Shown in pieces: positions 1 through 37,105 of a stretch of 37,940 bases of DNA (position 1 is its first letter; each line of letters begins with the position of its first letter). The DNA lies in the IMG/VR virus record IMGVR_UViG_2859783438_000005, one strand, 5' to 3'. Below the pieces are notes generated by a model. It had not been told where the DNA came from, did not search any database, and saw only the letters and a list, made by a program, of their open reading frames with translations. The translations under genes and the position numbers were made by a program. The stretch is from a virus (taxonomy: Duplodnaviria > Heunggongvirae > Uroviricota > Caudoviricetes).

Positions 1-981
1 CTAACGTCCTGCTTTTAACAATAACCAGATAAACACCGGCGCACCCAACGTTGCGGTGACCACGCCAATAGGCAGCTCTGCGGCAGCTAATGCCAGGCGC
101 GCTACAATATCGGCCAGCAGCACTGCGCTCGCCCCTGCCAGCGCGCAGCCGGGAAGTAATACGCGATGATCGGTTAAACCACACAACCGAAGAATATGTG
201 GGATCACCAGACCAATAAAGCCGATAGCACCCGCCAGCGCCACACTGACGCCAACCATCCAGCCGGTCGCTGCCACCAGCACATTGCGCCAGAACCACAG
301 GGGTAAACCCAGTTGCCGCGCCGAGATCTCGCCAAGTGCTAACATATTCATCGGCCTGGACTGACAACAGATCCACAACAACACGGGGATCAATGCCAGC
401 ATCAGCCAGCTTTGCCGCCAGTCTACGCCGCCAAAACCGCCCATCATCCAGTACATCAGCTGACGTAAATCAACAGAGGTGGAAAAGTAGATAGCCCACG
501 TCATTAGTGCGCTACAGATAATCCCTAATGCAACGCCAGCCAGCAATAACCGACTGGTCGAAAGATGACGACGGGCGAAACGTAAGAGTATTAAAGTGAT
601 GATAAGCGCGCCAGCAATCGCACACAGCCCTAGCGCCCAGTTGGGGAGTTGCCCTTGCCCAAGCAATACCGCGGCGATAAGCCCCACGCCTGCGCCGTTA
701 GAGACGCCAAGTAGTCCAGGTTCTGCCAGAGGATTTTCAAACAACGCCTGCATTACAGCGCCGGATATAGCCAGCGCCGCACCAACCAGCAATACAGCCA
801 GCGTACGTGGCAGGCGAATTTGCCAGACGAACAGTTCGCCACGAGGAGTAAACCAGTCACCTGGCGAAATCCATTGTTCACCGGCGCAAAGGCTTAAGAG
901 AAGCGCCAGCAGCATCAAAACTGACAGGCATAATAACCAGCGAATATTTTGTCGCTGTTGTTGGCGGGCAAGTGTCAGCAT
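1..981 (-). CDS. btuC: vitamin B12 ABC transporter permease BtuC
   Basis: 326-aa ORF from the track; translation ([24 protein letters not shown]...) is a polytopic membrane protein I recognise as essentially identical to enterobacterial BtuC. Confidence 0.93.
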
Positions 982-1038
982 GGTATCCGTTCTGCTGAAG
1001 TGTCATGGCGTTGATTTTACGGTGACTCTTCGACAGTG

Positions 1039-1064
1039 AAAAGAAAAAAGGCCGCAGAGCGGCC
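1039..1064 (-). terminator. putative rho-independent terminator between prophage cargo and btuC
   Basis: GC hairpin ggccg-cagag-cggcc preceded on the plus strand by an A-run (a U-run after the hairpin on the minus-strand transcript). Confidence 0.45.
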
Positions 1065-1173
1065 ATAAACACAAACAAAAATCAATAAGTTAGGTAATTA
1101 TCAAAGACTTACAGACACACAAAAACACAGCCAACCACAACAAATAACAGAGATGTGGTCAATTTGTGGATCA

Positions 1174-1728
1174 TCAGCCAACAAATTTAGCAACAAATAC
1201 AGCAACCGCCGCTGTGAAAATGGTTGTGCACACTGGCACAATAATGCCACTCCAACGCCACTTCGTATTATCATCAACCTTGTCAAACCGCCGATTCATC
1301 TCATCCATAATCTTGTCAAAGCGTTTATCCATCGCTTCGGTAAGCTCACCCTTCAGGCTGTTAATGTCTGATTTGAGCTGCTCTTTCAGGTTAGCTGTAT
1401 CAGATTTAAGCTCACCTTTCAGATTCGCAATATCGCATTCAAGATCACCTTTCAGATGTGCTATGTCTGCTTTGAGTTCACCTTTCACCTCACCAACATC
1501 GGCTTTAGTTGAGAGGTTTGTAGTGCGTTCAGCAAGCGTCGCAAGGTCGTTTCTTGTTAGCGATAAATCACCTTCGAGCCGCTCAATTCGCCTTTCAAGT
1601 TTATCTGACATTCCGCCTCCACTACTGCCGCCATCGCCACCATGATAAAGCACATCACGCTCAGAATGCGACACACTACCTGCTGAATTACCGAAAAGAT
1701 TTCTTGCTACATTACCCATTATCACCAT
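1174..1728 (-). CDS. coiled-coil, C-terminally membrane-anchored protein with 11-residue repeats (function unknown)
   Basis: 184-aa ORF; Gly/Ser-rich N-terminus, four to five 11-aa repeats (KGELKADIAHL / KGDLECDIANL / KGELKSDTANL / KEQLKSDINSL), single hydrophobic C-terminal segment (IIVPVCTTIFTAAVAVFVAKFV). Confidence 0.6.
   Translation of the reverse strand: MVIMGNVARNLFGNSAGSVSHSERDVLYHGGDGGSSGGGMSDKLERRIERLEGDLSLTRNDLATLAERTTNLSTKADVGEVKGELKADIAHLKGDLECDIANLKGELKSDTANLKEQLKSDINSLKGELTEAMDKRFDKIMDEMNRRFDKVDDNTKWRWSGIIVPVCTTIFTAAVAVFVAKFVG
1343..1487. repeat. 33-bp imperfect tandem repeats (coding, 11-codon units)
   Basis: visible periodic repetition of ...agctcacctttcagat... units in the DNA matching the 11-aa protein repeats; approximate limits. 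Confidence 0.5.
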
Positions 1729-1903
1729 CCTGCGCTTTGTCTTTCTCCAACCACTTCAGCACCGCAGACGTACGATAAAGGCTCAGGTAACCACAATTCA
1801 GGCAATGCAGCGTGTAATAAGTTTTGCGCATATCAGGTATGCTCTTAACATCACCCAAAAAAGCATAAGATACATAATGCTTTATGTTCTCTTTAATTAA
1901 CTC

Positions 1904-2157
1904 TGAAGTGGCACACTGAATTTGGCCACCTGAACAGAGGTGATATGCTCACCTCAGAACAACACAGGTGCTCCAATGAAAAAAAGAAATTTTAGCGCAG
2001 AGTTTAAACGCGAATCCGCTCAACTGGTTGACTATATCGTTGGATATTACAGCGCACTAAGACCGCACGAATATAACGGTGGGTTACCCCCAAACGAATC
2101 GGAAAATCGATACTGGAAAAACTCTAACTCGGTGGCCAGTTTTTGTTGACCACTTCA
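1904..2157 (+). mobile_element. miniature internally deleted IS911-like element (IS3 family) with 3-bp target duplication
   Basis: imperfect terminal inverted repeats tgaagtggcacactgaatttggccacc (left) and ggtggccagtttttgttgaccacttca (right, reverse complement tgaagtggtcaacaaaaactggccacc); flanked by CTC direct repeats at 1901-1903 and 2158-2160; internal ORF begins [18 protein letters not shown] as in IS911 OrfA. Confidence 0.7.
1940..2149 (+). pseudogene. remnant transposase ORF (IS911 OrfA N-terminus fused to an IS3-family OrfB C-terminal tail)
   Basis: 69-aa ORF; OrfA-like start [18 protein letters not shown] joined directly to ...[33 protein letters not shown]; far too short to encode a functional transposase. 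Confidence 0.55.
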
Positions 2158-2469
2158 CTCACTCTGTTCCTCCAGGGGTAGATTGTTAAAATTTTCTGGT
2201 TTCTTATTTTTATCCCAGCAAAGATCCATACTTTCTGGAACAGATAATCGCGACGATCCACATGAAGGGCAGACACTGGAGACCCCCTTCTCAGACAAGA
2301 AACGGAAGAAGATTTCTGGCGTAATCTCCATCAGCCGCTCTTTATGTTTTTTGACACGACTCATCGACTTCTTATTGATTTCATCAGCTTCTTCTTTGCA
2401 TTTATCTTCTATATATTTCGATAGTAAATAGTCATATAACTCTTTTTTTGTAGGTTTTTTTATTTCCAT
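2155..2469 (-). CDS. lysine-rich small protein with CPSCG zinc-ribbon-like motif, C-terminally truncated by the IS911-like insertion
   Basis: 104-aa ORF in AT-rich DNA; GGAGG RBS 9 nt upstream; starts 2 nt after the int stop; stop codon TGA is supplied by the IS terminal sequence. Confidence 0.55.
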   Translation of the reverse strand: MEIKKPTKKELYDYLLSKYIEDKCKEEADEINKKSMSRVKKHKERLMEITPEIFFRFLSEKGVSSVCPSCGSSRLSVPESMDLCWDKNKKPENFNNLPLEEQSE

Positions 2470-2471
2470 AG

Positions 2472-3449
2472 TTACATTCCTCCCAAGGGATTAAACCTCA
2501 CCGCATCCTGCAAGTAATCCGGCGCAAGATGGGCATAAATCATCGTTGTCTGAATCTTTGCGTGCCCCAGAATTTTCTGGAGCGTCAGAATATTGCCGCC
2601 GTTCATCATGAAATGACTGGCGAAGGTGTGGCGCAGCGCATGAACAGCCTGGCCGTCAGGAACATCAGGTGCGACCGTTTTGATGACATCGCGAACCAAT
2701 GAATAATCCAGCGTCGGAAACACCAGTTTCCCGCCCCGTTTTTTGATCTTTTCAAACAGGCTTTCAGAAATAGGAACGGTACGGTTTTTGCTGTTCTTCG
2801 TTTTTGAAAAAGTGATTCGACAATGAAGAACACGGCGCTGCTCCAGTGCCGCTACCTCGCCCCATCGCGCCCCGGTCGACAGAAGGATTTCGACGGCCAG
2901 CCGTTCATCGGGATTTTCAGCCAGTGCATCCAGCAACTGAACACATTCAGACTTACTCAGATATCCCATTTCACGCTCGTTAACCTTCATTCCTTTAAGG
3001 CCTTGAACGGGGTTATCGTTAAGAAAATGGCCGGATGAGATGAGTGCGGTAAACATCGCGCTTAACGCCCCAATCTCTCGATTTATGGTGCTGGGCTGTA
3101 TCCCCTGCTCTATCCTGGACACACGTAGCTCGGTGAGCATCGTTGTATTAAGTTTATGCACGCACGGGTCATCCATTGCCTCACTCAAGCGCAGCAATTT
3201 AAGGCGCGTGTTATGCCCTGACTTCATTAGCTGGCCGTGGTATTTCCACCACAAGTCAATAAGCACTGACAGCGGACGGCGATCAATGGAGTTTCCTTTC
3301 CACTCATTGTTATGCTGTTGCGCCAGCACCCACCGCTCATATAAAACTGCATCCGATTTCGTTTTAAATTTTTTGCGAATGCGTTTGCCTTTACGCCCCT
3401 CAGGACGCATGTCAAGAAGATACCCTCCCGGAATTGATTTTATGCTCAT
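2472..3449 (-). CDS. int: P2-type tyrosine integrase
   Basis: track ORF 2472..3599 trimmed to the Met at MSIKSIPGGYLLDMRPEG; C-terminal catalytic region with HALRHTFASHF...LGHAKIQTTMIYAHL (R-H-R-Y signature); about 325 aa, as for P2 Int. Confidence 0.9.
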   Translation of the reverse strand: MSIKSIPGGYLLDMRPEGRKGKRIRKKFKTKSDAVLYERWVLAQQHNNEWKGNSIDRRPLSVLIDLWWKYHGQLMKSGHNTRLKLLRLSEAMDDPCVHKLNTTMLTELRVSRIEQGIQPSTINREIGALSAMFTALISSGHFLNDNPVQGLKGMKVNEREMGYLSKSECVQLLDALAENPDERLAVEILLSTGARWGEVAALEQRRVLHCRITFSKTKNSKNRTVPISESLFEKIKKRGGKLVFPTLDYSLVRDVIKTVAPDVPDGQAVHALRHTFASHFMMNGGNILTLQKILGHAKIQTTMIYAHLAPDYLQDAVRFNPLGGM

Positions 3450-3498
3450 TCGTGAAGCCCCAGCGTTACAAGACCACCATGCCCCCAGCGTTCCATGA

Positions 3499-3810
3499 TT
3501 AGCCGGGCTGTGTGCCAGTCTTGCGGGATTTTTGAGAAGACGATGTGTTTTCTGGCCCATCAGGGGAGAGAGAAGGACTGATCTGCCCAGCAGCCTCATT
3601 TGTTTCGTTACTCATCAACCACGTAGTGTATTTTTTAAATTCCGGGTGCATTGTGATTTTCAGTAAAACCTCCGTTCCCACACCTCGAATACCAGTCTCG
3701 TATTGCTTAACCGTACCAACCGCAATACCTATTGAATCCGCGAACTTTGCCTGACTAAGCCCCTCAGATTCTCGAATTGCTTTTAGCTTCTTTGATATCT
3801 CTATTGACAT
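3499..3810 (-). CDS. C: immunity repressor (P2 C-like helix-turn-helix repressor)
   Basis: track ORF 3499..3912 trimmed to Met MSIEISKKLKAIRESEGLSQAKFADSIGIAVGTVKQYETG (HTH, Cro/C1-type); upstream of int, divergent from the early operon. Confidence 0.8.
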   Translation of the reverse strand: MSIEISKKLKAIRESEGLSQAKFADSIGIAVGTVKQYETGIRGVGTEVLLKITMHPEFKKYTTWLMSNETNEAAGQISPSLSPDGPENTSSSQKSRKTGTQPG

Positions 3811-3905
3811 GGTGTGCACCTGAATACTATATTGGTTATCAGTTGAGTGCCACTTGACGCTACAAAGAGCCACAAATAGCACCAGATTGAATAGGTTATC
3901 ACACC
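3811..3905. promoter_or_regulatory. divergent early control region (Pc/Pe-like) with direct-repeat operator candidates
   Basis: 95-bp gap between divergent repressor and early-operon starts; two copies of GGTTATCA in direct orientation (attggttatcag / ataggttatcac); promoter hexamers not confidently assigned. Confidence 0.4.
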
Positions 3906-4184
3906 ATGGCAAAAGTCCTTAACACATACGAACAAGCGGATTTTGAGCGTTTGGCGGCGTTCTACCCATACCGTAATGAACATGGGCTACCGGTACTTGA
4001 AGAAAGCCTAGAGGATTATGCGAAACGCACAAATCAAAGCATTCTCGCTGTAAGAAGGCAGGCTGATAGATCGGTAATTCCCGTTACTCAAGAAGGAAGA
4101 AACACAAAACGCAAAGTAAATCTCTTCGCAATTTTCCTGAAAACCATCAGAAACGCAGAGAAATACGTGCAGATGACAAAATAA
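3906..4184 (+). CDS. first early-operon gene, Cox/Apl-position small regulator (putative)
   Basis: 92-aa ORF directly divergent from the repressor; assignment by position only, sequence not recognised. Confidence 0.5.
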   Translation: MAKVLNTYEQADFERLAAFYPYRNEHGLPVLEESLEDYAKRTNQSILAVRRQADRSVIPVTQEGRNTKRKVNLFAIFLKTIRNAEKYVQMTK

Positions 4185-4198
4185 CGAGGTGTCATTTT

Positions 4199-4537
4199 AT
4201 GCTGAAGCAACGCCGTAATTTTTGTACCGGAACAGAACGCCACGCTAACCGTTTCACTACCAGTGCATCACGCAGCAACATCCGCTACAGCCTGAGTGAT
4301 ACACACGCAACGCCGGATGGCTACCCAGTAAAACAAATCGGCGAGCACGCCTGGCTGATTGAGAAAGCTGGAATCGTGATCCACAAATGCCCACGCAATC
4401 CGTTTACCGGAAACCGCATTTTTGCACTGAGCTGTGGCGACAATCAGTTCGGGCAGGATTTCACATTATACGAAGCACTTCGCACGGTTGATCGTCTGCT
4501 TCGCGGGCAAAGTTTTATTAAACAGGCTGATTTATAA
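4199..4537 (+). CDS. hypothetical early protein
   Basis: 112-aa ORF with GAGGTG RBS about 10 nt upstream. Confidence 0.5.
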   Translation: MLKQRRNFCTGTERHANRFTTSASRSNIRYSLSDTHATPDGYPVKQIGEHAWLIEKAGIVIHKCPRNPFTGNRIFALSCGDNQFGQDFTLYEALRTVDRLLRGQSFIKQADL

Positions 4538-6243: not shown

Positions 6244-8208
6244 ATGACGGCAGAGTACATCAGGGACTGGCAACAACCGCGCCACGCAGTGGGGCGTGAA
6301 GGAACGGGGATCCCCGCTCCTGAATCCGCGCTTTCCTCCTGGCTGGATGCCCACCGGGCAGAGAACGAGCGCCGCCAGGAAATGGCTGATGCGGCGTTCT
6401 CCGCCACGCCACTGGGCAACCTGATTAATAAAAGCCTGGACGCACAGGAAAAACAGGACAAAACCATCACACTGGCAGGAGACGCCAGAAAACAGGCACG
6501 CGGCGCGGTGGATGAAGCCATGGCCTCGCTGCGCCTGCTGCCGTCCTATCTGCGCGATCCGCTTATTCGCCACCTCTCCTTCCTGCGCAAAAAACAGGAA
6601 GCCGATCGCCGGAAAGGCAAAAAGAGCTGGCAGGCGGAACGCTATGCACGCGGAACCCTGCGCAAAATATTCGAACGTCTGGATCGCACTGACGGACACT
6701 GGCTGACACCGGGTTATCGCTCCCTTGCCGGACGTGAACGCCTGGACGATTTGCTTTACCTGCCGCAACTCAACAAACACCAGATACAGACGCTGGCCAC
6801 CATGACGGCGGCGATGTTCAGCAGCACCTTCGAAAAACTCTGCGATGGTTTTGGCGCGACTGATGGCGAGCTGACCATGGATGTAACGCTGAAGGCGTAT
6901 CAGATGCTGGCCCGCATGGCGTTACACTTACACGCCATGCCTCCGCATTATGACGCACTGACAACAGACAAAGACCGGAGGCACGAACCGGACACAGAAC
7001 TGCTGCCGGGCGCAATCCTTCGCCTGACCTGTGCGGAATGGTGGAAACGCAAACTGTGGCTGTTACGTTGCGAGTGGAGAGAAGAACAACTTCGCGCCGC
7101 CTGTCTGGTTTCCAGAAAAACATCGCCCTATCTGAGCCAGGACGCGTTAAGCGAGTTTCGCGCACAGCGCGAGAAAACACGCGATTTCCTGAAAAGTTTC
7201 ATGCTGGAAAATGAAGACGGGTTCACGATTGATCTCGAGACGGTGTATTACGCGGGAGTAAGTAACCCGGTTCACCGTAAGGCAGAAATGATGGCCACCA
7301 TGAAGGGGCTGGAACTTCTGGCCGAAGCCCGTGGCGACAAAGCGGTGTTTCTGACTGTCACCTGCCCGTCAAAATACCACGCCACAACGGAGAACGGTCA
7401 TCCGAATCCCAAATGGAACGGGGCCACAATGCGCGACTCCAGCGATTACCTGGTTAACACGTTTTTTGCGACGGTCCGCAAAAAACTGAACCGCGACGGC
7501 CTGCGCTGGTATGGCATCCGCACGGCGGAGCCTCACCATGACGGCACCGTGCACTGGCATATGATGGTCTTTGCTCATCCGGAAGAAATCGACACCATTG
7601 TGTCCCACACCCGCGATATTGCCATTCAGGAAGATCGTCACGAGCTGGGCGATGACATAACTCCGCGCTTTAAGGCGGAGTATGTAGACGGCTCAAAAGG
7701 CACGCCAACCAGCTACATCGCCACCTACATCGGGAAAAACCTGGACAGCCGCGCCGTGGATGGCATCGACCCGAAAACGGGCAAGCCACGCGTTGACCAC
7801 GAAACCGGAAAATCAATGGCCGAGAGCGTGGAACGCGCCATCGGCTGGGCGCGCCTTCACCGGGTCCGCCAGTTCCAGTTCTTTGGCATCCCCTCCCGCC
7901 AGGTATGGCGTGAACTGCGCCGCCTTGCCAGCCAGATGGCACGCAACCCGGAAGGCCCGCAACGGCTGAAGGATGACGCAATGGATGCGGTTCTTGCCGC
8001 CGCTGATGCCGGATGTTTTGCCACCTACATAGAGAAACAGGGCGGCGTACTTGTTCCACGCAAAGACTACCTGATTCGCACCGCCTACGACCTCGCCGAT
8101 GAGCTGAACGATTACGGCGAACAGAGCGTACAGATTTACGGGATCTGGTCACCACTCATCGGGGAATCCTCCGTGTGTGCACGCATCCGGATAACTGGAA
8201 GCTGGTAA
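6244..8208 (+). CDS. A: rolling-circle replication initiator endonuclease (P2 gpA family)
   Basis: 654-aa ORF; HUH-type motif region ...AEPHHDGTVHWHMMVFAHPEE... and the position at the end of the early operon match P2/186 A. Confidence 0.85.
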   Translation: MTAEYIRDWQQPRHAVGREGTGIPAPESALSSWLDAHRAENERRQEMADAAFSATPLGNLINKSLDAQEKQDKTITLAGDARKQARGAVDEAMASLRLLPSYLRDPLIRHLSFLRKKQEADRRKGKKSWQAERYARGTLRKIFERLDRTDGHWLTPGYRSLAGRERLDDLLYLPQLNKHQIQTLATMTAAMFSSTFEKLCDGFGATDGELTMDVTLKAYQMLARMALHLHAMPPHYDALTTDKDRRHEPDTELLPGAILRLTCAEWWKRKLWLLRCEWREEQLRAACLVSRKTSPYLSQDALSEFRAQREKTRDFLKSFMLENEDGFTIDLETVYYAGVSNPVHRKAEMMATMKGLELLAEARGDKAVFLTVTCPSKYHATTENGHPNPKWNGATMRDSSDYLVNTFFATVRKKLNRDGLRWYGIRTAEPHHDGTVHWHMMVFAHPEEIDTIVSHTRDIAIQEDRHELGDDITPRFKAEYVDGSKGTPTSYIATYIGKNLDSRAVDGIDPKTGKPRVDHETGKSMAESVERAIGWARLHRVRQFQFFGIPSRQVWRELRRLASQMARNPEGPQRLKDDAMDAVLAAADAGCFATYIEKQGGVLVPRKDYLIRTAYDLADELNDYGEQSVQIYGIWSPLIGESSVCARIRITGSW

Positions 8209-23243: not shown

Positions 23244-25214
23244 ATGAGAACCACAACACGAAAATTTAAAACCATTATCACCGATACGGGTGCAAAAAAA
23301 TTAGCGCAGGCAACCGCGCCAGATGGGAAACCTGTCCGCCTGACACATATGGCCGTGGGTGACGGCGGCGGTACTTTACCCACGCCAGACAGTAAGCAGA
23401 CCCGTCTTGTGCATGAGGTGTGGCGACATACCGTTAATCGCGTCACCCTGGACGCAACACATCAGAACCACATTATTGCGGAGCTGGTTATTCCTCCTGA
23501 AACGGGCGGATTCTGGATCCGGGAAATTGGTGTGTTTGATGAGCACGGCGATTTGATCGCGGTAGGCAATACTGCCGAAAGTTACAAGCCAACCGTTGCC
23601 GAAGGATCCGGACGTGCACAAACATTTCGCACCATTCTGACCGTATCCAGCACTGCCACTGTGGCGCTTACCGTGGATAACACCATGGTGATGGCCACAG
23701 TGAATTACGTGGATGACAAACTGAAAGAGCATGAACAGTCACGACGTCACCCGGACGCCTCGCTGACCGCAAAAGGCCTTGTCCAGCTCAGCAACGCCAC
23801 CAACAGCACGTCTGAAACGCTGGCAGCGACACCAAAAGCCGTTAAGGCAGTAATGGATGAAACGAACAAGAAAGCCCCATTAAACAGCCCGGCACTGACC
23901 GGAACGCCAACAACACCAACTGCGCGACAGGGAACGAATAATACCCAAATCGCAAGCACGGCTTTCGTTATGGCTGCGATTGCCGCACTTGTAGACTCTT
24001 CGCCTGATGCACTGAACACACTGAACGAGCTGGCGGCGGCGCTGGGCAACGACCCGAATTTTGCGACCACCATGACTAACGCGCTTGCGGGTAAGCAACC
24101 GAAAGATGCCACTCTGACGGCGCTGGCGGGGCTTGCTACTGCGGCAGACAGGTTTCCGTATTTTACGGGGAATGATGTCGCCAGCCTGGCAACCCTGACA
24201 AAAGTCGGGCGGGATATTCTTGCGAAATCGACCGTTGCCGCCGTTATCGAATACCTCGGTTTACAGGAAACGGTAAATCAGGCTTCTGGCGCATTACAGA
24301 AAAACCAGAACGGCGCAGATATTCCGGGGAAAGATACCTTCACCAAAAATATTGGTGCCTGCCGCGCATATAGCTCATGGCTGAATATTGGTGGCGATAG
24401 TCAGGTCTGGACAACCGCGCAATTTATTTCGTGGCTGGAGAGTCAGGGAGCATTTAACCATCCTTACTGGATGTGCAAAGGCTCATGGGCTTATGCAAAT
24501 AATAAGGTCATTACAGATACAGGTTGCGGAAATATTTGTCTTGCAGGTGCTGTGGTGGAAGTTATTGGCACTCGCGGCGCAATGACCATACGCGTTACCA
24601 CGCCGAGCACGTCCAGCGGTGGCGGAATTACTAACGCTCAATTCACTTATATTAATCATGGTGATGCTTACGCTCCTGGCTGGCGACGAGACTACAACAC
24701 GAAAAATCAACAACCTGCATTTGCTTTAGGGCAAACAGGAAGCACTGTCGGAAATGATAAAGCTGTTGGCTGGAACTGGAATAGCGGGGTCTATAACGCA
24801 AACATTGGTGGCGCATCGACATTAATCCTCCACTTCAATATGAATACGGGGAGCTGCCCTGCTGTACAGTTCCGCGTGAATTACAGGAACGGCGGTATTT
24901 TTTATCGTTCAGCGCGTGATGGTTATGGCTTTGAAGCTGACTGGTCAGAGTTTTACACCACAACCCGCAAACCCTCTGCGGGAGATGTTGGTGCATATAC
25001 GCAGGCAGAATGTAACTCAAGGTTTATTACAGGTATTCGCCTTGGTGGTCTGTTATCTGTTCAGACATGGAATGGTCCCGGATGGTCTGACAGGTCAGGT
25101 TATGTTGTTACCGGTTCCGTTAACTCAAACAGAGATGAACTAATTGATACAACTCAGGCAAGGCCAATTCAGTATTGCATTAATGGGACGTGGTATAACG
25201 CGGGGAGTATTTAA
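23244..25214 (+). CDS. H: tail fibre protein H: constant N-terminal part fused to the currently expressed variable C-terminal cassette
   Basis: 656-aa ORF; first ~340 aa closely resemble P2 H (GDGGG, ELVIPPE, EHEQSRRHPDASLTAKGLVQLSNATNSTSETLAATPKAVK...), then diverge after ...YLGLQETVN at the gix-like site. Confidence 0.9.
   Translation: MRTTTRKFKTIITDTGAKKLAQATAPDGKPVRLTHMAVGDGGGTLPTPDSKQTRLVHEVWRHTVNRVTLDATHQNHIIAELVIPPETGGFWIREIGVFDEHGDLIAVGNTAESYKPTVAEGSGRAQTFRTILTVSSTATVALTVDNTMVMATVNYVDDKLKEHEQSRRHPDASLTAKGLVQLSNATNSTSETLAATPKAVKAVMDETNKKAPLNSPALTGTPTTPTARQGTNNTQIASTAFVMAAIAALVDSSPDALNTLNELAAALGNDPNFATTMTNALAGKQPKDATLTALAGLATAADRFPYFTGNDVASLATLTKVGRDILAKSTVAAVIEYLGLQETVNQASGALQKNQNGADIPGKDTFTKNIGACRAYSSWLNIGGDSQVWTTAQFISWLESQGAFNHPYWMCKGSWAYANNKVITDTGCGNICLAGAVVEVIGTRGAMTIRVTTPSTSSGGGITNAQFTYINHGDAYAPGWRRDYNTKNQQPAFALGQTGSTVGNDKAVGWNWNSGVYNANIGGASTLILHFNMNTGSCPAVQFRVNYRNGGIFYRSARDGYGFEADWSEFYTTTRKPSAGDVGAYTQAECNSRFITGIRLGGLLSVQTWNGPGWSDRSGYVVTGSVNSNRDELIDTTQARPIQYCINGTWYNAGSI
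24253..24277. repeat. gix/hix-like recombination site A (left inverted repeat of the invertible fibre segment)
   Basis: acctcggtttacaggaaacggtaaa; the reverse complement recurs at 27310-27334; matches the Mu gix site as I recall it (TTCCTGTAAACCGAGG...). Confidence 0.7.
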
Positions 25215-25216
25215 CG

Positions 25217-25750
25217 ATGATGCACTTAAAAAACATTTCTGCTGGTAATCCTGAAACAAAAGAGCAATACCAGCTAACGAAACAATTTAACATCAAATGG
25301 CTTTATACAGAGGATGGGAAAAACTGGTATGAGGAACAAAAGAACTTTCAGCCTGATACGTTGAAAATGGTCTATGACCACAACGGCGTTATTATTTGTA
25401 TTGAAAAGGATGTTTCAGCAATTAATCCGGAAGGCGCAAGCGTCGTTGAGGTTCCTGATATTACAGCAAATCGCCGGGCTGATATTTCAGGTAAATGGAT
25501 GTTCAAAGATGGCGTAGTGATAAAGCGAACTTATACCGGGGAAGAGCAGAGGCAACAAGCGGAAAATGAAAAGCAAAGCCTGCTACAGCTCGTCAGGGAT
25601 AAAACCCAGCTATGGGACTCACAGCTACGGCTGGGCATTATTTCCGACGAGAATAAACAAAAATTAACCGAGTGGATGCTCTATGCGCAGAAGGTCGAAT
25701 CCACAGACACCTCCAGCCTGCCAGTAACGTTTCCCGAACAACCAGAATGA
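25217..25750 (+). CDS. G: tail fibre assembly protein (gpG/Tfa family), current orientation
   Basis: 177-aa ORF directly after H; paralogous to the minus-strand ORF 25779..26306 (MMHLKNI.AGN...[23 protein letters not shown]). Confidence 0.8.
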   Translation: MMHLKNISAGNPETKEQYQLTKQFNIKWLYTEDGKNWYEEQKNFQPDTLKMVYDHNGVIICIEKDVSAINPEGASVVEVPDITANRRADISGKWMFKDGVVIKRTYTGEEQRQQAENEKQSLLQLVRDKTQLWDSQLRLGIISDENKQKLTEWMLYAQKVESTDTSSLPVTFPEQPE

Positions 25751-25778
25751 AACAAGGCCCGATATCGGGCCTTAATTT

Positions 25779-26306
25779 TTACTCAGGCTTTTGTGGCCAT
25801 TCTGGCTTTGCCGTATCCACACGGCTGACCAGAACACTGTAGCGTTCCCATGCTTCCAGTCGTGTGCGTTCCTCGTCCGTCGCCATATTCAGCCTGACAG
25901 CGCGTTCCAGCGGCTGGATGACTGATTCAGCTTCGGAAAGCAATGCGGCCTTTTGTGATTCGGCCTGTTGTTGCTGTTCGTCAGCCGTATAAATCCGTTT
26001 AACCACAGCTCCGTCCTTAAACATCCACTTACCGGAATCATCAGCACGACGATTAGCTGTAATATCAGGAACCTCAACGACGCTATAACCTTCAGGGTTA
26101 AGCGTGGAGGCATCTTTGGTGATGGCGACAATAATATTATTTGCATCGTAAACAATCTTTATTGTGTCTGGCTGAAAGTTCTTCACTTCCTCATACCAGT
26201 TTTTTCCGTCCTCAGAGTAAAGCCAGATGACTCCGTGCTTCTTTGTTAACTCATACTGCTCCACTGTTTTAGCATTACCTGCTTTTATGTTCTTTAAGTG
26301 CATCAT
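25779..26306 (-). CDS. alternative tail fibre assembly protein (Tfa') of the inverted cassette
   Basis: track ORF 25779..26339 trimmed to Met [11 protein letters not shown]; paralogue of G. Confidence 0.7.
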
Positions 26307-26307
26307 A

Positions 26308-26949
26308 TTAAATACTCGCCACATTATACCAAGTGCCATTTATATACTTTTGCACTGGCCTGTAATGAACGCCTGCAATATTATCGGCAGAGTTTTTTCC
26401 GGTATCCTGTACGTTAATCCCCGTCAGTACATAGCCTGACGGGCACTGAAAATTCCATGTTTGCCAGTTGTTCACTCCATAATATTGCTGTGAACCAAGT
26501 CGAACATCTTTCACATATCTGGAATCAAAATTGCCATAGTTGCCGGGAATAACTTGCGAGCCGCAAAGCCAGTTCCCGTTATTATCCATGTACGCCTGAC
26601 CATCGGTGCCATTGGCTGTCCTTGAGTTATTAATCATGTAGATGCCAAATTGCTTATTTCCCAGACCGCCAATCATAAATTTGCGGTCGGCATGGTCCTG
26701 ACGGAGCAAAGCCTGAGCACCATCAGTGGATACCGCATTACGTCCCAAAATAACATTCTGGTCACGCATATGAATCCACATGCCGGTACTACTGTTAATT
26801 GCAAAACGGTTTGCAAATATATCCCCTGTAACATCAAGACCATGCCCCATGCTTATCCGGCCAGTTCTGAGATTAAGCGTAAAGGGGCGTAGTGGCCCTA
26901 TATTACCATTTTCCCCTTCATTCTCTCGTGTAGGATGATATGCAGGCAT
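26308..26949 (-). CDS. alternative tail fibre C-terminal receptor-binding cassette (H'v), promoterless; upstream part lies in another frame
   Basis: ends ...[16 protein letters not shown]...[16 protein letters not shown] as in the P2 H C-terminus; the 5' continuation to the gix site (26898..27309) is in a different frame. Confidence 0.55.
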
Positions 26950-27309
26950 TCTTCAGAACGACGAAAAATGGCACCAAAAGATGAATTAAATATCCTCAGT
27001 GCATTGACTGTCGATATTTTCACTTCACTGCTGAAAAGGGCTTCAACAAGAACAGACAAAGCATTCCATTTAAGATTCATCAGGTCTTTAGGCCGGGTGC
27101 CAATGATGCGGTGTCTCCATTTGAAATATTCATTGCCGTTGTTGCCTGTTTCAAACCACATGTAGGAATCGGTGTCTGCATCCGAATTATTTTTAAACCC
27201 AATCTTTGCCCAGTCAGTATTTCGAATCCAGGCAAGGATTGAGTCGTTTTCAAAAGTAAGTCCACCGGACAACGTATCGCCATTTTTTTGCACGGCGTTA
27301 CCAGCCTTG

Positions 27310-27334
27310 TTTACCGTTTCCTGTAAACCGAGGT
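27310..27334. repeat. gix/hix-like recombination site B (right inverted repeat), interrupted by IS insertion
   Basis: tttaccgtttcctgtaaaccgaggt; the rest of the predicted site (tagataa) is displaced to about 27850 beyond the IS. Confidence 0.65.
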
Positions 27335-27335
27335 T

Positions 27336-27846
27336 TGAGGTGTACTGGCAATAGCGGACACTACCATTTGTTCTTTTTTTAAGCAGCCATCTGATGATAT
27401 TTTTCCCTGAAGGCTGCCGGGGAGATATTCCCCAGACGAGAGTGACGACGCTGACGATTGTAGAAAATCTCAATGTATTCCCGTATTACTGAGATGGCTT
27501 CATCCCGGTTATTAAAACGATAGTGGCTCAGGCTCTCATTTTTCAGCGTTCCCCAGAAGCTTTCCATCGGAGCGNNNNNNNNNNNNNNNNNNNNNNNNNN
27601 NNNNNNNNNNNNNNNNNNNNNNNNNNNNNNNNNNNNNNNNNNNNNNNNNNNNNNNNNNNNNNNNNNNNNNNNNNAAGAGATAATCGGGAAGCGCCTTCAC
27701 TGATCGAAAGTTGATTTTCAAGAACCGTTCTGACAGCTTCGGCTTTGAACTCTTTAGAGTAACGTTGGGTTTTTCTGCTCATTATTAGCTCCTTCTGATG
27801 CCATTCTATTTCAGGAAGGAGTGTCCGTTAAACTCAGGCTACCTCA
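27336..27846 (-). mobile_element. IS3-family insertion sequence (IS600-like), interior unresolved by an assembly gap
   Basis: terminal inverted repeats tgaggtgtactggcaatagcggacactacc (27336-27365) and ggaaggagtgtccgttaaactcaggctacctca (27814-27846); 3-bp GTT direct repeats at 27333-27335 and 27847-27849; OrfA N-terminus MSRKTQRYSKEFKAEAVRTV and OrfB C-terminus ...FYNRQRRHSRLGNISPAAF on the minus strand. Confidence 0.7.
27575..27674. other. assembly gap (100 N)
   Basis: run of exactly 100 n inside the IS element; the true length of the missing sequence is unknown. Confidence 0.95.
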
Positions 27847-27911
27847 GTTTTAGATAATGGCCGTTTCCGGCCTGCATGGCATGATTTGCGCTTTTGGACG
27901 GGAGATTCAGC

Positions 27912-28499
27912 GTGCTGATTGGCTATGTAAGGGTATCAACAAATGACCAGAATACAGACCTGCAACGAAACGCTCTTGTTTGTGCAGGATGTGAACAAAT
28001 ATTTGAAGATAAATTAAGCGGGACAAAGACAGACCGACCGGGATTAAAACGCGCTTTAAAGCGCCTTCAAAAAGGTGACACGCTGGTTGTCTGGAAACTG
28101 GATCGCCTCGGGCGAAGCATGAAACATCTGATTTCTCTCGTCGGGGAACTACGGGAGCGAGGAATTAATTTTCGCAGTCTGACCGACAGCATAGATACAT
28201 CTTCTCCAATGGGGCGTTTTTTCTTCCACGTGATGGGTGCCCTGGCTGAAATGGAACGTGAATTAATTGTTGAACGTACACTGGCCGGACTGGCGGCAGC
28301 ACGCGCACGGGGGCGCACAGGCGGACGTCGACCGAAGCTGACAAAAGAACAGCATGAGCAAATAGCAAGGCTGATCAAAAACGGGCACGACAGAAAACAA
28401 CTGGCAATAATTTACGGCATTGGTATATCGACGATTTATCGTTACCACCCCGCAGGAGAATCAATCGGAACAATAGAGAAGAGTCAGGAAACAAAATAA
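27912..28499 (+). CDS. serine DNA invertase (Gin/Pin/Hin/Cin family)
   Basis: track ORF 27894..28499; from the GTG at 27912 the protein reads MLIGYVRVSTNDQNTDLQRNALVCAGCEQIFEDKLSG..., nearly identical to Gin/Pin as I recall them (catalytic Ser in VRVSTNDQ). Confidence 0.88.
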   Translation: MLIGYVRVSTNDQNTDLQRNALVCAGCEQIFEDKLSGTKTDRPGLKRALKRLQKGDTLVVWKLDRLGRSMKHLISLVGELRERGINFRSLTDSIDTSSPMGRFFFHVMGALAEMERELIVERTLAGLAAARARGRTGGRRPKLTKEQHEQIARLIKNGHDRKQLAIIYGIGISTIYRYHPAGESIGTIEKSQETK

Positions 28500-29035: not shown

Positions 29036-31879
29036 TCAATCTTTATCGTAAAAACTGCCACGCCCGGCACGGGCGCGCCGTTCCATTTCTGCCCTGACCA
29101 TTTCACCGACCAGTTTCGCCAGTTCGCGGGGATTCTGCGTAACAACGTTATGCAGATGAACATGAATTTCACCACCAAATCCGGAGGCAACAGGCTCCCG
29201 GTTACGGGAAGTTACAGGAACTGATGCCACTGGAGAGCGTATGGCCTCCGCCACCGGGCGGGAGCTGGCCGCAACAACAGGGACCAGCGCCGGAGGCAGC
29301 GGAGCCGGGACCACGGGTGTGATATTAATTGCGGGGGCAGGCTTACTGACCTGCGCAATCTTCCGCTCCTGCCACTCCCCACGAACAGCAAGTGCGCGGG
29401 GCAGGTTCTTAAAGACAATATCGCCGGGGCCAATGCGTTTTTTCGTCTCATCAACCAGCTTACCTGTGTTATCAGCAATTTTGCTGAGTCTGCGTAGCGT
29501 CCCGGTATTGCTGTCTGTGAGCGGTTTGTTGTCTTTGGGTTTATCACCTCCGGTGCCATTGCCATTTTCCACAGGCTTCGGCGGATTGATTTTCGCCAGG
29601 TTCCCCTGAAGCAAGGCAACCTTGTCCTGAAGAATGGCCGCACGCTGTGCGTCTTCGATTTTCTTGCGCGCCCTTTCCGCTTCATCCGGAAGGACGCCAA
29701 GTTTTTCAAGTATCCACGCCAGCGTATCCAGTAGCATTTTTGCAGGTGTCAGAACAAGTTGTAACGCACCGCCAAGAACGTTACCGAATATCTCGCCAGC
29801 ACTGGCACATTTATCCAGCGTTTCCTTGCTGGACTCCATCGGTGACAGCAGCGATTTAAACCAGTTAAAGACCTGAATAATCCCATCGCGCACGACATCA
29901 AAAACAGGGCCAAACCGTTCAAAGGTTTCGCGCAACGGGGTCAGCCTTTCCATAATCCCGCTGAACACCCCGGCAAAAAATGCCCTGATGGGATCCCAGT
30001 ATTTCCAGATAAGAACGGCAGCTCCGGCAAGCGCAGCCACGATAAGACTAACCGGACTGAACAGCGCCCCGATAGCGCCACCAAGTAAAGAAACGGAACC
30101 CGTCACCATTCCCCATAATGCAGGCAGAACCCTGACAACATTCATTGATTCGGTCAGGAGAGAAAAACCGAGACGCAACGTAGCCAGCTTCCCGTGAAGC
30201 ACCCCAATAACCAGAGACAACGAACCAACCGTTGCTGTTGTCGCCAGCAGTGCGCCTCCCGCTATCAGTAACTGGCGCGTCAGTGCCGGGTGGGCCTGCG
30301 CCAGCGCCGTCACCTTTGAGACAACCCGCGTGAGCCACTGCGTGACAGAACGCAGCGGACCGTCAACCAGATCACTGATGCGAATACGCAGACCTTCCCA
30401 TGCACTGCCGAGTGATTTCAGGTTGCCATCAAGGTTATTGGCCATAACCTTTGCCGTGCGTTCTGCCTCACCGCGCGCGCCTTCAAGTTCTTTTCTCAGT
30501 TTGGCTAAGAAGCCGTCACCTGCCGCATCAACGAGGCCCATAAATGATGTGAAAGCCTCTTCTCCGGCAATGTCCTTAAAGAACGATACCCGGTCAACCT
30601 CCCCGTATTTGCGGGTGGCTTTATAGAGATCGGCCAGCACATTCTCCATCGGGCGCATTTTGCCTTTGGCGTCAGCAACTGACACCCCCAGCTCTTTCAG
30701 TGCTTCTGCCGCTGCCTTTGGCGGTGATGACAGATTGGCCAGGCTTTTACGCAACGCTGTACCTGCATCACTCCCCCTGATACCCATCTTCGCCAGCACG
30801 CCCGCCATCGCTGCGGCCTGCTCCAGCGATATTCCCAGCTTACCCGCCACCGGACCTGCATATTTCATGGTTTCGCCCAGTGCGCGAAGGTCAGTGTTGG
30901 TACGGGTAAACGCTGCGGTAAGTGTGTCACCGACCCGGTCCATCTGGTCAGCAGAGAGGCCGAACTGCGTCAGGATATTGGAACCAATATCCGCCGTCTC
31001 GCCGAGGTCCATACCGCCAGCCGTTGCCATGCTCAGCACGCCGGGAAGCGCAGCCTGAATGGCCTGCGGTGTGAAACCAGCCATTGCAAGAAATGCCTGT
31101 CCACTGGCGGCATCGCCTGCGGTGAACTGCGTTTCAGAGCCAAGTTTTAACGCCTGCTCACGCAGCGCCTTAAACTGCGGGCTGTTTTTATCGATTCGCG
31201 TCAGTGCCTGAACACGGGACATCTCTTTCCCGAACCCGATAGCGGGCTGCAAAAAACGCCCGGCAGCATAGCCGCCCGCTGCCGCCGCACCTGTTGCCAG
31301 CGCACCACCTGTTTTCAGTTTTCCCGCTGTTTCCTGCGCGCGTGAATACCGCTCACGCGCCTGCGTTACACGCGCAAGCGCCCGCCGTTCGCGTTCAAGC
31401 TGGTTGTTGTATTGTCCGGTGCGTCTGATGGCCTGCTGGATGGTGTTATCGCTGCCTGTCAGGGAAATGCCGTGGCGTTTCAGCTCTCCGCCAAGTTCCC
31501 GCATTTTCTGAATTTCCCGTGTGCGCGATTCATTCAGGCGTTCAAGCCGGGTGCTTAACTGCTGCATCAGCTTTTGTTGTTTTTCGCTGAGCACTGTACC
31601 CGTGCGTTGTAACTGATTAAGGGCGTTAAGCTGGCGTCGTGCTTTCACGATGCCCGCATCCGCTTTACTGACAGCGTCACGGGCGCGCTCAAATGAACGC
31701 GCCTGACGCTCGAGATTTTTGATCGCCCCCTGCGTTCGCTGGATGGAGTCACCAAACTGCCCCATCAGGCGGCGGGCGTTTTCGGCAGGCCGGGTCAGCC
31801 TGTCAACGGCGCTGAAAGCGACCCGGATATCAAGAGTCTTCATTGTCTGCATTCCCGCTGCGAAGTGCCGCCCGCTCAC
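29036..31879 (-). CDS. T: tail tape measure protein (P2 gpT family)
   Basis: 947-aa Ala/Gly-rich ORF with coiled-coil N-terminus and hydrophobic central region, directly downstream of E/E'; start uncertain (GTG 31879, ATG 31852 or 31843). Confidence 0.85.
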   Translation of the reverse strand: MSGRHFAAGMQTMKTLDIRVAFSAVDRLTRPAENARRLMGQFGDSIQRTQGAIKNLERQARSFERARDAVSKADAGIVKARRQLNALNQLQRTGTVLSEKQQKLMQQLSTRLERLNESRTREIQKMRELGGELKRHGISLTGSDNTIQQAIRRTGQYNNQLERERRALARVTQARERYSRAQETAGKLKTGGALATGAAAAGGYAAGRFLQPAIGFGKEMSRVQALTRIDKNSPQFKALREQALKLGSETQFTAGDAASGQAFLAMAGFTPQAIQAALPGVLSMATAGGMDLGETADIGSNILTQFGLSADQMDRVGDTLTAAFTRTNTDLRALGETMKYAGPVAGKLGISLEQAAAMAGVLAKMGIRGSDAGTALRKSLANLSSPPKAAAEALKELGVSVADAKGKMRPMENVLADLYKATRKYGEVDRVSFFKDIAGEEAFTSFMGLVDAAGDGFLAKLRKELEGARGEAERTAKVMANNLDGNLKSLGSAWEGLRIRISDLVDGPLRSVTQWLTRVVSKVTALAQAHPALTRQLLIAGGALLATTATVGSLSLVIGVLHGKLATLRLGFSLLTESMNVVRVLPALWGMVTGSVSLLGGAIGALFSPVSLIVAALAGAAVLIWKYWDPIRAFFAGVFSGIMERLTPLRETFERFGPVFDVVRDGIIQVFNWFKSLLSPMESSKETLDKCASAGEIFGNVLGGALQLVLTPAKMLLDTLAWILEKLGVLPDEAERARKKIEDAQRAAILQDKVALLQGNLAKINPPKPVENGNGTGGDKPKDNKPLTDSNTGTLRRLSKIADNTGKLVDETKKRIGPGDIVFKNLPRALAVRGEWQERKIAQVSKPAPAINITPVVPAPLPPALVPVVAASSRPVAEAIRSPVASVPVTSRNREPVASGFGGEIHVHLHNVVTQNPRELAKLVGEMVRAEMERRARAGRGSFYDKD

Positions 31880-35602: not shown

Positions 35603-37105
35603 ATGAACAAAAAGCTGTATTTATTCCCAGACTCAAACATTTTTCTACAATGCAAGGACTTGACGCAGGTAAATTTTTCCGAGATTACTGCTTGTGATGA
35701 AGTATGTATCATTATTACAAGGCCCATTCAGCAAGAGATTGACCGCCAGAAAGGGCAAGGTAATTCCCGCCTATCCAAAAAAGCAAGGAAGGCTGCTAGC
35801 CTATTTAATCAAGTAGTTGATTCAACTGACATGACTCTTGTTATTCGTGAACGCTCGCCGCGAGTTTTTCTTACCATGGATCTAAGCCTGAAACCATGTG
35901 AACAGTTATCTGAACAATTGGATTATCAGGAGGCCGACGATCGTTTTGTTGGTATTGCGGCAGGGTATTGCGCTGACGATCCAGATTCGGAGGTGGCAAT
36001 CATTACCAATGATAGCGGTCCACGTTTTTCAGCAATAAAACATAATATAATCTGCTATAAAGTGCCTTCTTCATGGTTGCTTCCTGCTGAGCCAGATGAA
36101 AAGGATAAACAAATTAAATTGCTGGAAGCTAAGCTGAAGCAATTCACTCAGTCTATGCCCGATTTCAGCATTAAAGTAGCCGATGACGAGCAATTAAATA
36201 TTGTACTTCCTTATTATACAGCTTTATCTGAATATGAAGTTGATAATTTGCTTTGTCAACTAACGGATGCATTCCCATTGGTTACAAACTTTGACAATGA
36301 ACAAACTACCCCACAATCACTAGAAAAAATCATCAAGTCATTTAGTCAACAGGAGTATTTCCCTGTATCAGCAGATGATATTTCTCTTTATAAAGAAAAA
36401 CATTATCCACTTTGGAAAAAGCAGTGTGAAGAAATACTGAAAAACTGTCATACTCATATTAATCCGAAGGCAATAAATTACCCGCTGTCGTTTTTATTAC
36501 AAAACACAGGTTATACTATCGCTGAACGTGCTGTGGTAACATTTACAGCAAAAGGAGATTTTCGTCTGTGTGGATTTAATTGGGAGATAATGGAAGAGCT
36601 GACTGAAAGCAAAAGGATTGACCTACCTTCAGCCCCTACCGCCCCCAAAGGAAAATGGCGTAGTGTATGTGGCGTAACAGAAAGAATGCCTTACGCTGGG
36701 GGAGCTTTGGAAACACCGCTATCCAGTATAATTTCAAAAGAAATTGGTCCTTTGTTATCTCTTACTCCAACAGAAAGGGATAAAAACGATTTTTATTATA
36801 AAGAAAAGAGAAATGAGCCAGTTCAAGTTGTATCGCTGGAATGCGAAGAGTGGCGTCATCAAGTCAAAGAAGAAATATTCCCGTTGTTCGTATATACAGC
36901 CAACAAACCAAAGAAAGTGAATGGTGCAATTGAGGTGAGAGTTGATGCAAATAACCTTACCAATCCGGTCATTAAAACATTTAAATTAAAAATAACTATA
37001 GAAGAACATAGTGCATTTTCAACCATAACAGAAATGGTGCAGACATACATTCAAGAGCAGAAGAAAAGACAGAAAAGTTCTATTAGCGCACAAATCAAAA
37101 CATGA
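35603..37105 (+). CDS. 500-aa protein with PIN-like N-terminal domain (putative nuclease) and unrecognised C-terminal domain
   Basis: single long ORF in markedly AT-rich DNA; N-terminal ~150 aa show a PIN-like layout of conserved acidic positions (YLFPDSNIFL ... TRPIQQEIDRQ ... DD ... IITNDSGPR). Confidence 0.6.
   Translation: MNKKLYLFPDSNIFLQCKDLTQVNFSEITACDEVCIIITRPIQQEIDRQKGQGNSRLSKKARKAASLFNQVVDSTDMTLVIRERSPRVFLTMDLSLKPCEQLSEQLDYQEADDRFVGIAAGYCADDPDSEVAIITNDSGPRFSAIKHNIICYKVPSSWLLPAEPDEKDKQIKLLEAKLKQFTQSMPDFSIKVADDEQLNIVLPYYTALSEYEVDNLLCQLTDAFPLVTNFDNEQTTPQSLEKIIKSFSQQEYFPVSADDISLYKEKHYPLWKKQCEEILKNCHTHINPKAINYPLSFLLQNTGYTIAERAVVTFTAKGDFRLCGFNWEIMEELTESKRIDLPSAPTAPKGKWRSVCGVTERMPYAGGALETPLSSIISKEIGPLLSLTPTERDKNDFYYKEKRNEPVQVVSLECEEWRHQVKEEIFPLFVYTANKPKKVNGAIEVRVDANNLTNPVIKTFKLKITIEEHSAFSTITEMVQTYIQEQKKRQKSSISAQIKT

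Follow-up and report, generated by a model that had tools for sequence, protein, structure and literature searches.

Tail-fibre switches driven by serine invertases of the Gin family have been textbook material since about 1980. In phage Mu, and likewise in D108 and SfMu, a constant part of the fibre gene (Sc) leads into an invertible G segment, in which two alternative ends with their chaperone genes (Sv-U and U'-Sv') lie between two crossover sites, and the invertase gene follows. P1 and P7, with Cin and the C segment, and the e14 element, with Pin and the P segment, have recombinases of the same family, 12-2-12 sites, and an enhancer inside the recombinase gene. A further member, the PinB invertase with the invertible B segment of Shigella boydii, was reportedly described by Tominaga, Ikemizu and Enomoto in 1991. 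Here, a cassette of this kind is described from a P2-type prophage, recovered as the IMG/VR virus record IMGVR_UViG_2859783438_000005 (Caudoviricetes), whose 37,940 nucleotides are referred to below as the window. The locus is very probably a Gin-family (Din-family) serine-invertase switch of the PinB/B-segment type, the right crossover site of which has been broken by the insertion sequence (IS) IS600, so that the switch is probably locked.

The closest described system is the PinB/B segment (GenBank D00660), about 3.1-3.2 kb long, with Mu-like fibre and chaperone genes and a host that also belongs to the genus Shigella. Its published sites are bixL, TTCCTGTAAACC GA GGTATTCGATAA, and bixR, TTCCTGTAAACC GA GGTTTTAGATAA (Table 3, PMC3241671). 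The left site in the window equals bixL, and the right site, reconstructed as it would have stood before the insertion, equals bixR, base for base; the cassette can therefore be assigned to the PinB/B-segment form of the Gin family. Apart from the sites, likeness to PinB is drawn from the P1 record, which annotates D00660 at 89-93% identity to the same regions. Unlike the B segment, the present copy has its right site split by IS600 and its silent fibre tip frameshifted.

The left 26-bp crossover site (24244-24269, plus strand) reads TTATCGAATACC TC GGTTTACAGGAA, with the central TC at 24256-24257, and lies within the reading frame of the tail-fibre gene H, where it codes for V-I-E-Y-L-G-L-Q-E. 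The right site (27318-27343, minus strand) now reads ACACCTCAAACC TC GGTTTACAGGAA: its inner half, its central dinucleotide (GA at 27330-27331 on the plus strand) and outer-half positions 2-5 are native, and the remainder is the terminus of IS600. Reconstruction of the state before insertion gives TTATCTAAAACC TC GGTTTACAGGAA. Both of these functional 12-2-12 sites overlap an inverted repeat that an earlier note on this DNA, made from the sequence alone, had recognised, and which was confirmed as exact: 24253-24277 (ACCTCGGTTTACAGGAAACGGTAAA) is the reverse complement of 27310-27334 over 25 nucleotides (repeat I4), and similarity continues to 52 nucleotides at 81%. By simple arithmetic, about 6e-7 exact inverted pairs of this length would be expected by chance in 37.9 kb, and the same 25-mer is present in phage Mu at both borders of the G segment. 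The outer half-sites are one to two bases off Mu gix. A motif search of the whole window returned the two known core matches only, with no extra crossover sites, a result that excludes a shufflon with further sites.

IS600, a member of the IS3 family, occupies 27336-27846 on the minus strand, and includes a 100-N assembly gap. The pieces at 27336-27574 and 27675-27846 are 100% identical to the two ends of an intact IS600 copy, the ends of the element having been set from independent copies with different flanks. Since a complete IS600 measures 1,264 bp, the run of N at 27575-27674, a scaffold gap, stands for 853 bp of the element, so that about 0.75 kb of the real locus is missing from the window. 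The element is flanked by a 3-bp target duplication, GTT, at 27333-27335 and 27847-27849, and removal of IS600 together with one GTT leaves ...CCTGTAAACCGAGGTTTTAGATAATGGCCG..., identical to the stretch present without interruption in SfMu and in a sister prophage in Escherichia coli FDAARGOS_943. IS600 has thus entered the invertase-proximal site in its outer half, 4 bp away from the crossover dinucleotide, and has replaced outer-half positions 6-13. It also lies between the segment and the invertase, collapsed around the gap, and the placing of the invertase 'just beyond' the segment in the earlier note needs correcting to this extent. IS600 is common in such genomes; the sequence of the cassette/IS600 junction, CCTGTAAACCGAGGTTTGAGGTGTACTGGC, had no exact match (0) in species-representative genomes and none (0) in 5,426 complete E. 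coli genomes, and as far as these collections show the insertion appears private to this lineage.

The effect of the insertion on the site can be gauged against 133 natural sites taken from viral contigs, 59 of them invertase-proximal and 74 on the fibre side. The commonest outer half among the former is TTATCTAAAACC (51/59), that of the reconstructed right site, and among the latter TTATCGAATACC (66/74), that of the left site here. All but four of the sample (129/133) fit the pattern TTATC-N-AA-W-ACC. The outer half now present in the right site, ACACCTCAAACC, breaks this pattern at T1, T2, T4 and A7, four positions that are invariant in 129/133 natural sites, and retains 7/11 conserved positions, as against 11/11 for both the left site and the reconstructed right site. 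Two inverted 26-bp sites with two half-sites each, as found in the sister prophage and as deduced for this locus before the insertion, are thus no longer present in the window, where the right site is broken.

Comparable losses were observed in other natural relatives. In L044 (~3264, plus strand) and L094 (~3100, minus strand), a 10-bp deletion of ATTATCTAAA has removed the invertase-proximal outer half-site, and in L019 (~6728, minus strand) a deletion joins early codons of the invertase directly to the site. Decay of this half-site seems to recur among natural relatives.

The tail-fibre gene H (23244-25214, plus strand; 656 residues; Pfam Phage_tail_fib and Phage_fiber_2) consists of a P2 H-like constant part, Sc (residues 1-338; 23244-24257, plus strand), and an expressed variable tip, Sv (residues 339-656; 24258-25214, plus strand). 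The constant part is near-identical to P2 H residues 244-386 and 99.9% identical to the sister prophage. As the earlier note had it, the match to P2 H runs up to the repeat, ending at ...VIEYLGLQETVN, with divergence directly after. Sc ends in the Leu338 codon CTC, the last two bases of which are the crossover dinucleotide, and either tip would therefore join H in frame. The expressed tip is of the Mu S' or G(-) type, being 98% identical to the C-terminus of Mu S', annotated as the G(-) form, and 95% identical to SfMu gp49. It is followed by a U'-like chaperone gene of 177 codons (25217-25750, plus strand; Pfam Caudo_TAP, E = 7e-37), positioned as Mu U'. On the minus strand lie a silent, U-like chaperone gene of 175 codons (25779-26306; Caudo_TAP, E = 2.5e-37) and a silent alternative tip of the Mu S/P2 H-like type (26308-27329), present as two open reading frames (ORFs; 26898-27473 and 26308-26949). 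When read from the intact sister copy, this silent tip is 67% identical to Mu S. The ORF list and the Pfam matches agree with the mirror-image arrangement described in the earlier note, and the minus-strand and plus-strand chaperone genes share further mirror-image repeats, I1-I3. The segment thus contains what defines a Mu-type cassette: two opposed C-terminal fibre exons, each with its chaperone, and in-frame fusion to the constant part at the crossover.

The invertase, of PinB/Gin type, is encoded at 27912-28499 on the plus strand (195 residues, GTG start), and its assignment to the Gin/Pin family in the earlier note is upheld by a Resolvase domain (PF00239, E = 1.3e-50), an HTH_7 domain (PF02796, E = 1.6e-13) and 86% identity to Mu Gin. 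The N-terminus, MLIGYVRVS, places the catalytic serine at position 9, as befits a Din-family recombinase, and the gene is intact. The protein is 100% identical to the invertase of the flipped sister prophage, and the exact sequence occurs on 991 contigs. A presumed recombinational enhancer, a predicted Fis-binding region, lies within the 5' part of the gene (27930-28001, plus strand) and is the homologue of the annotated P1 cin enhancer, nucleotides 19-90; it is identical to Mu gin at 72/72 positions and to P1 cin at 55/72, and is invariant across five relatives. Promoter consensus scans of the sister prophage and the window found no sigma-70-like promoter for the invertase, the sole hit being the promoter of IS600 itself. 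The earlier note had allowed for a fossil switch if the invertase proved non-functional; the invertase is intact, and the broken part is the site.

That such segments invert is best seen in relatives. Two diagnostic queries of 500 nucleotides were used, each with 250 nucleotides of constant H, followed in one by the current tip and in the other by the opposite end of the segment in reverse complement. At a coverage of at least 80%, the two junction types were found in 127 and 356 complete E. coli genomes. The synthetic flipped junction is absent from the window but was matched at 100% identity over all 500 nucleotides in E. coli FDAARGOS_943. Upstream of the segment, the sister prophage in this genome differs from the window by 8 mismatches in 9,278 bases (99.9% identity). 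Its 3.1-kb segment is inverted relative to the window and 99.8% identical, with one substitution and one indel, no IS600 and no frameshift, and the same outer half-sites stand at the same outside positions. The limits of the exchange between the two are 24253-24277, an interval that contains the central TC (24256-24257). On this comparison, which amounts to comparative proof, the switch of the immediate lineage is one that inverts by recombination at these sites. Inversion has also been measured directly in P2-like prophages of enteropathogenic E. coli (EPEC) (PMC4272514).

The silent tip carries a lesion of its own. Compared with SfMu, Mu, Escherichia phage 520873 and the sister prophage, the window lacks one nucleotide at 26932 (CCC to CC on the minus strand), and this deletion is the only indel against the sister within the segment. 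As assembled, the flipped H would stop at residue 481 instead of 678, so that even a rare flip would give a truncated fibre. All four of the 1-nucleotide indels against the sister prophage (8170, 11575, 12101 and 26932) are homopolymer deletions in the window, a pattern that neutral decay of a Shigella prophage could explain, as could errors in the consensus; the pseudogene calls hold for the sequence as assembled, and the IS600 junctions are independent of homopolymer errors.

The other three deletions were noted outside the cassette. At 8170, CCC to CC splits the gene for a replication endonuclease (P2 A-like) into ORFs at 6244-8208 and 8175-9065, where the sister has a single ORF of 940 residues. 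At 12101, a run of C5 has become C4 near the 3' end of the portal gene, and the ORF has 314 residues as against 348. At 11575, A7 has become A6 in a stretch with no listed ORF of at least 150 residues.

Related recombinases are known to bind as one dimer per site, with one subunit per half-site (PMC3575834, PMC3798978). Two dimers and the Fis-bound enhancer form the invertasome, in which all four strands are cut at the central dinucleotide and a pair of subunits rotates by 180 degrees (PMC3575834, PMC3798978). In an intact copy of the present cassette, an invertase dimer would accordingly sit on each 26-bp site, and the sites would synapse on the Fis-bound enhancer inside the invertase gene. 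Cleavage at the central TC/GA, followed by subunit rotation through 180 degrees, would invert a segment of about 3.07 kb. Because the left site lies in frame inside H, with the crossover in the codon for Leu338, inversion would exchange both the final ~320-340 fibre residues and the chaperone gene that goes with them, and so change the host range. In the window, one of the four subunits would have lost to IS600 the sequence on which its helix-turn-helix domain docks, and inversion would therefore be abolished or strongly reduced. It is likely that inversion in this copy is strongly impaired or lost, and the prophage is most likely frozen with the Mu S'-type, or G(-), fibre tip. Mu G(-) particles, which carry S', have been reported to infect Shigella sonnei among other hosts (PMC4406740), and the frozen orientation fits an S. 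sonnei host, as found for this prophage. This fits a history in which the phage entered S. sonnei in the S' orientation and was hit by IS600 afterwards.

Several points weigh against a complete lock, and they form the case for a switch that is still active at a reduced yet biologically meaningful rate, with the hybrid right site serving as a quasi-site. The positions read strictly by the Gin catalytic domain (6-4, which must be A/T, 3-2 and the core) have all been kept, as TTT, GG and GA, because IS600 happens to begin with T, and the end of the element by chance preserves 3/7 of the conserved outer positions that it supplies. At positions 7-10, the catalytic domain of Gin has been found to be without base preference (PMC3616721). 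With the intact inner half as its anchor, a dimer might retain some function at low frequency; the invertase is intact and the presumed enhancer region unchanged. From the 1980s work of Iida and Hiestand-Nauer, Cin can reportedly use poorly matching quasi-sites at low frequency. Moreover, a consensus error may account for the frameshift at 26932. When the junction ORF was used as a protein query, neither an identical protein over the full length nor a second assembly with the ORF was recovered. Against residual activity stand the four altered outer-half positions that hardly vary in nature, and the requirement of the native enzyme for its helix-turn-helix domain in site binding, with one subunit to each half-site (PMC3575834, PMC3798978). 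In SfMu, a single base change beside the core was suspected by the authors to lie behind the non-switching observed (PMC4406740), and in the window as assembled the flipped fibre would in any case be truncated by the frameshift. Meaningful residual switching is hence considered unlikely, and the locked, IS600-broken switch remains the preferred reading.

A further idea concerns what might become of the parts of a locked switch. The orphaned invertase could act in trans on other segments or quasi-sites in S. sonnei, or the frozen S' fibre and chaperone could be kept for a benefit to the host, such as receptor masking or a tailocin-like function. There is precedent for the former, in that PinQ of the Qin prophage acts in trans on the P segment of e14, and PinR can act in trans too. 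If either possibility were true, IS600 would have turned a bet-hedging switch of the phage into a fixed trait of the host, but the idea is a long shot.

The earlier note had proposed an intact, working Mu-like host-range switch, or 'shufflon', at the Z/fun position of a P2-type prophage. In its favour, all gene components are present, relatives flip, and P2-like prophages of EPEC have been seen to invert (PMC4272514). The architecture and the family stand, and at 91-95% DNA identity to the invertible segments of Mu, D108, SfMu and P7 (87-89% for P1) the likeness is closer than had been claimed. A working state in this copy finds no support, the right site being divided by IS600 and the silent tip carrying a frameshift. 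The term shufflon is also misplaced. Shufflons of the R64 type likewise swap the C-termini of an adhesin-like protein by DNA inversion, but they do so with several segments, short sfx repeats and the tyrosine recombinase Rci, whereas the window has one segment, two 26-bp sites and a serine invertase, with no multi-segment Rci system. The Z/fun position holds on the G side only: the G-equivalent gene is followed by the cassette, as G is by fun(Z) in P2, but on the far side of the cassette a reversed U-T-E-FII-FI operon follows, a genus layout that differs from that of P2. An intact working switch as so described is thus very improbable.

The last alternative, that IS600 between segment and invertase is a scaffolding artefact in which two IS600-ended contigs were misjoined over the 100-N gap while the real locus is uninterrupted or rearranged, gains some colour from the position of the gap inside an element that is highly repeated in such genomes and from the several homopolymer indels, but it is scarcely credible and was rejected, since a unique cassette-to-IS junction is present at each contig end, the junctions have in common the GTT duplication, of the 3 bp typical of IS600 (an independent copy, L004, has GCG), bixR and the sequence downstream are recovered to the base once the element and one GTT are deleted, and to either side the genes run collinear with those of the sister prophage.

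The system itself is an already known one, of which this copy has decayed and is probably locked by the IS. Little in it is new: a 1991 publication already covers the PinB/B segment with the exact sites, databases contain P88-like phages that carry the cassette, and for P2-like prophages there are quantitative data on inversion. What is gained is a corrected annotation, that of a natural, probably locked variant with IS600 in bixR, and an example of IS-driven decay of prophage functions in Shigella. The copy could also serve as a natural half-site knockout control in inversion assays.

Comparison with the other members of the family places the cassette more closely. Although the arrangement is that of Mu, the constant part of the fibre and the whole virion module are of the P2 family here, and the right site is disrupted. 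The fibre and chaperone modules of P1/P7 and e14 are 87-91% identical to those of the window; in P1, cin points toward the segment and overlaps cixL, and the core dinucleotide is AA, not GA. The e14 segment, for its part, has been recruited for anti-T2 defence (PMC12529663). Phage P2 has no invertase, second site or alternative tip, and its F operon is co-oriented with H-G. Its H gene (L010, nucleotides 1124-1149) nonetheless contains TTATCGAATATCTCGGTTTACAGGAA, a 25/26 match to bixL, followed by a tip of the silent type for ~100 residues, and this appears, from the match, to be a relic half-switch in a phage without an invertase.

The exact H protein was found in one public record, AWV53052.1 from Shigella sonnei (locus CP029794.1, GCA_002073875.2), and the host gene btuC makes up the left flank of the window. 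From H onwards, the gene order runs through the chaperone, the mirrored pair and the invertase to minus-strand U-T-E-FII-FI and plus-strand D. This order is the same as, and collinear with, that of Escherichia phage 520873, at 94-98% identity, which places the host phage, as judged by these features, in Xuanwuvirus (P88-like Peduoviridae, within the P2 family), where the cassette and the reversed tail operon are standard. Xuanwuvirus P88, phage 520873 and E. coli prophages such as that of FDAARGOS_943 share the order, including the reversed operon after the invertase, and in them the invertase-proximal site is uninterrupted, unlike here. A secondary inversion was considered as the origin of the minus-strand U-T-E-FII-FI after the invertase and rejected; because the layout is typical of the genus, the reversed operon is not a rearrangement.

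The late regions of the window and of FDAARGOS_943 are 99.7-99.9% identical; the latter differs in the orientation of the segment, in its integration site and in being without a PIN-domain cargo gene. A tyrosine integrase of 375 residues is encoded at 2472-3599 on the minus strand, with the prophage beside btuC, while the late region of the sister is flanked by pdxB and flk and goes with another integrase and another immunity module. By this comparison, which covered 1-4235 of the window, the early and late halves of the prophage are mosaic. Also in the early region is a ParM-like plasmid-segregation gene (9142-10101, plus strand), annotated in the sister as ParM and accompanied there by a partner stability gene.

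Between the D-like gene and an ogr-like region, an ORF of 500 residues with an N-terminal PIN_4 domain lies at 35603-37105 (plus strand), in a stretch of low G+C content (0.37-0.44). The ORF had no match in NCBIfam and is absent from the FDAARGOS_943 prophage; given this absence from a related prophage, it is probably cargo or a defence-type moron.

In the tape-measure gene, a 6-nucleotide in-frame insertion relative to the sister prophage is present at 29554. Identity to the sister is only 97.1% in this region but 99.8-99.9% on the opposite side of the invertase, a step that points to a recombination boundary close to the cassette.

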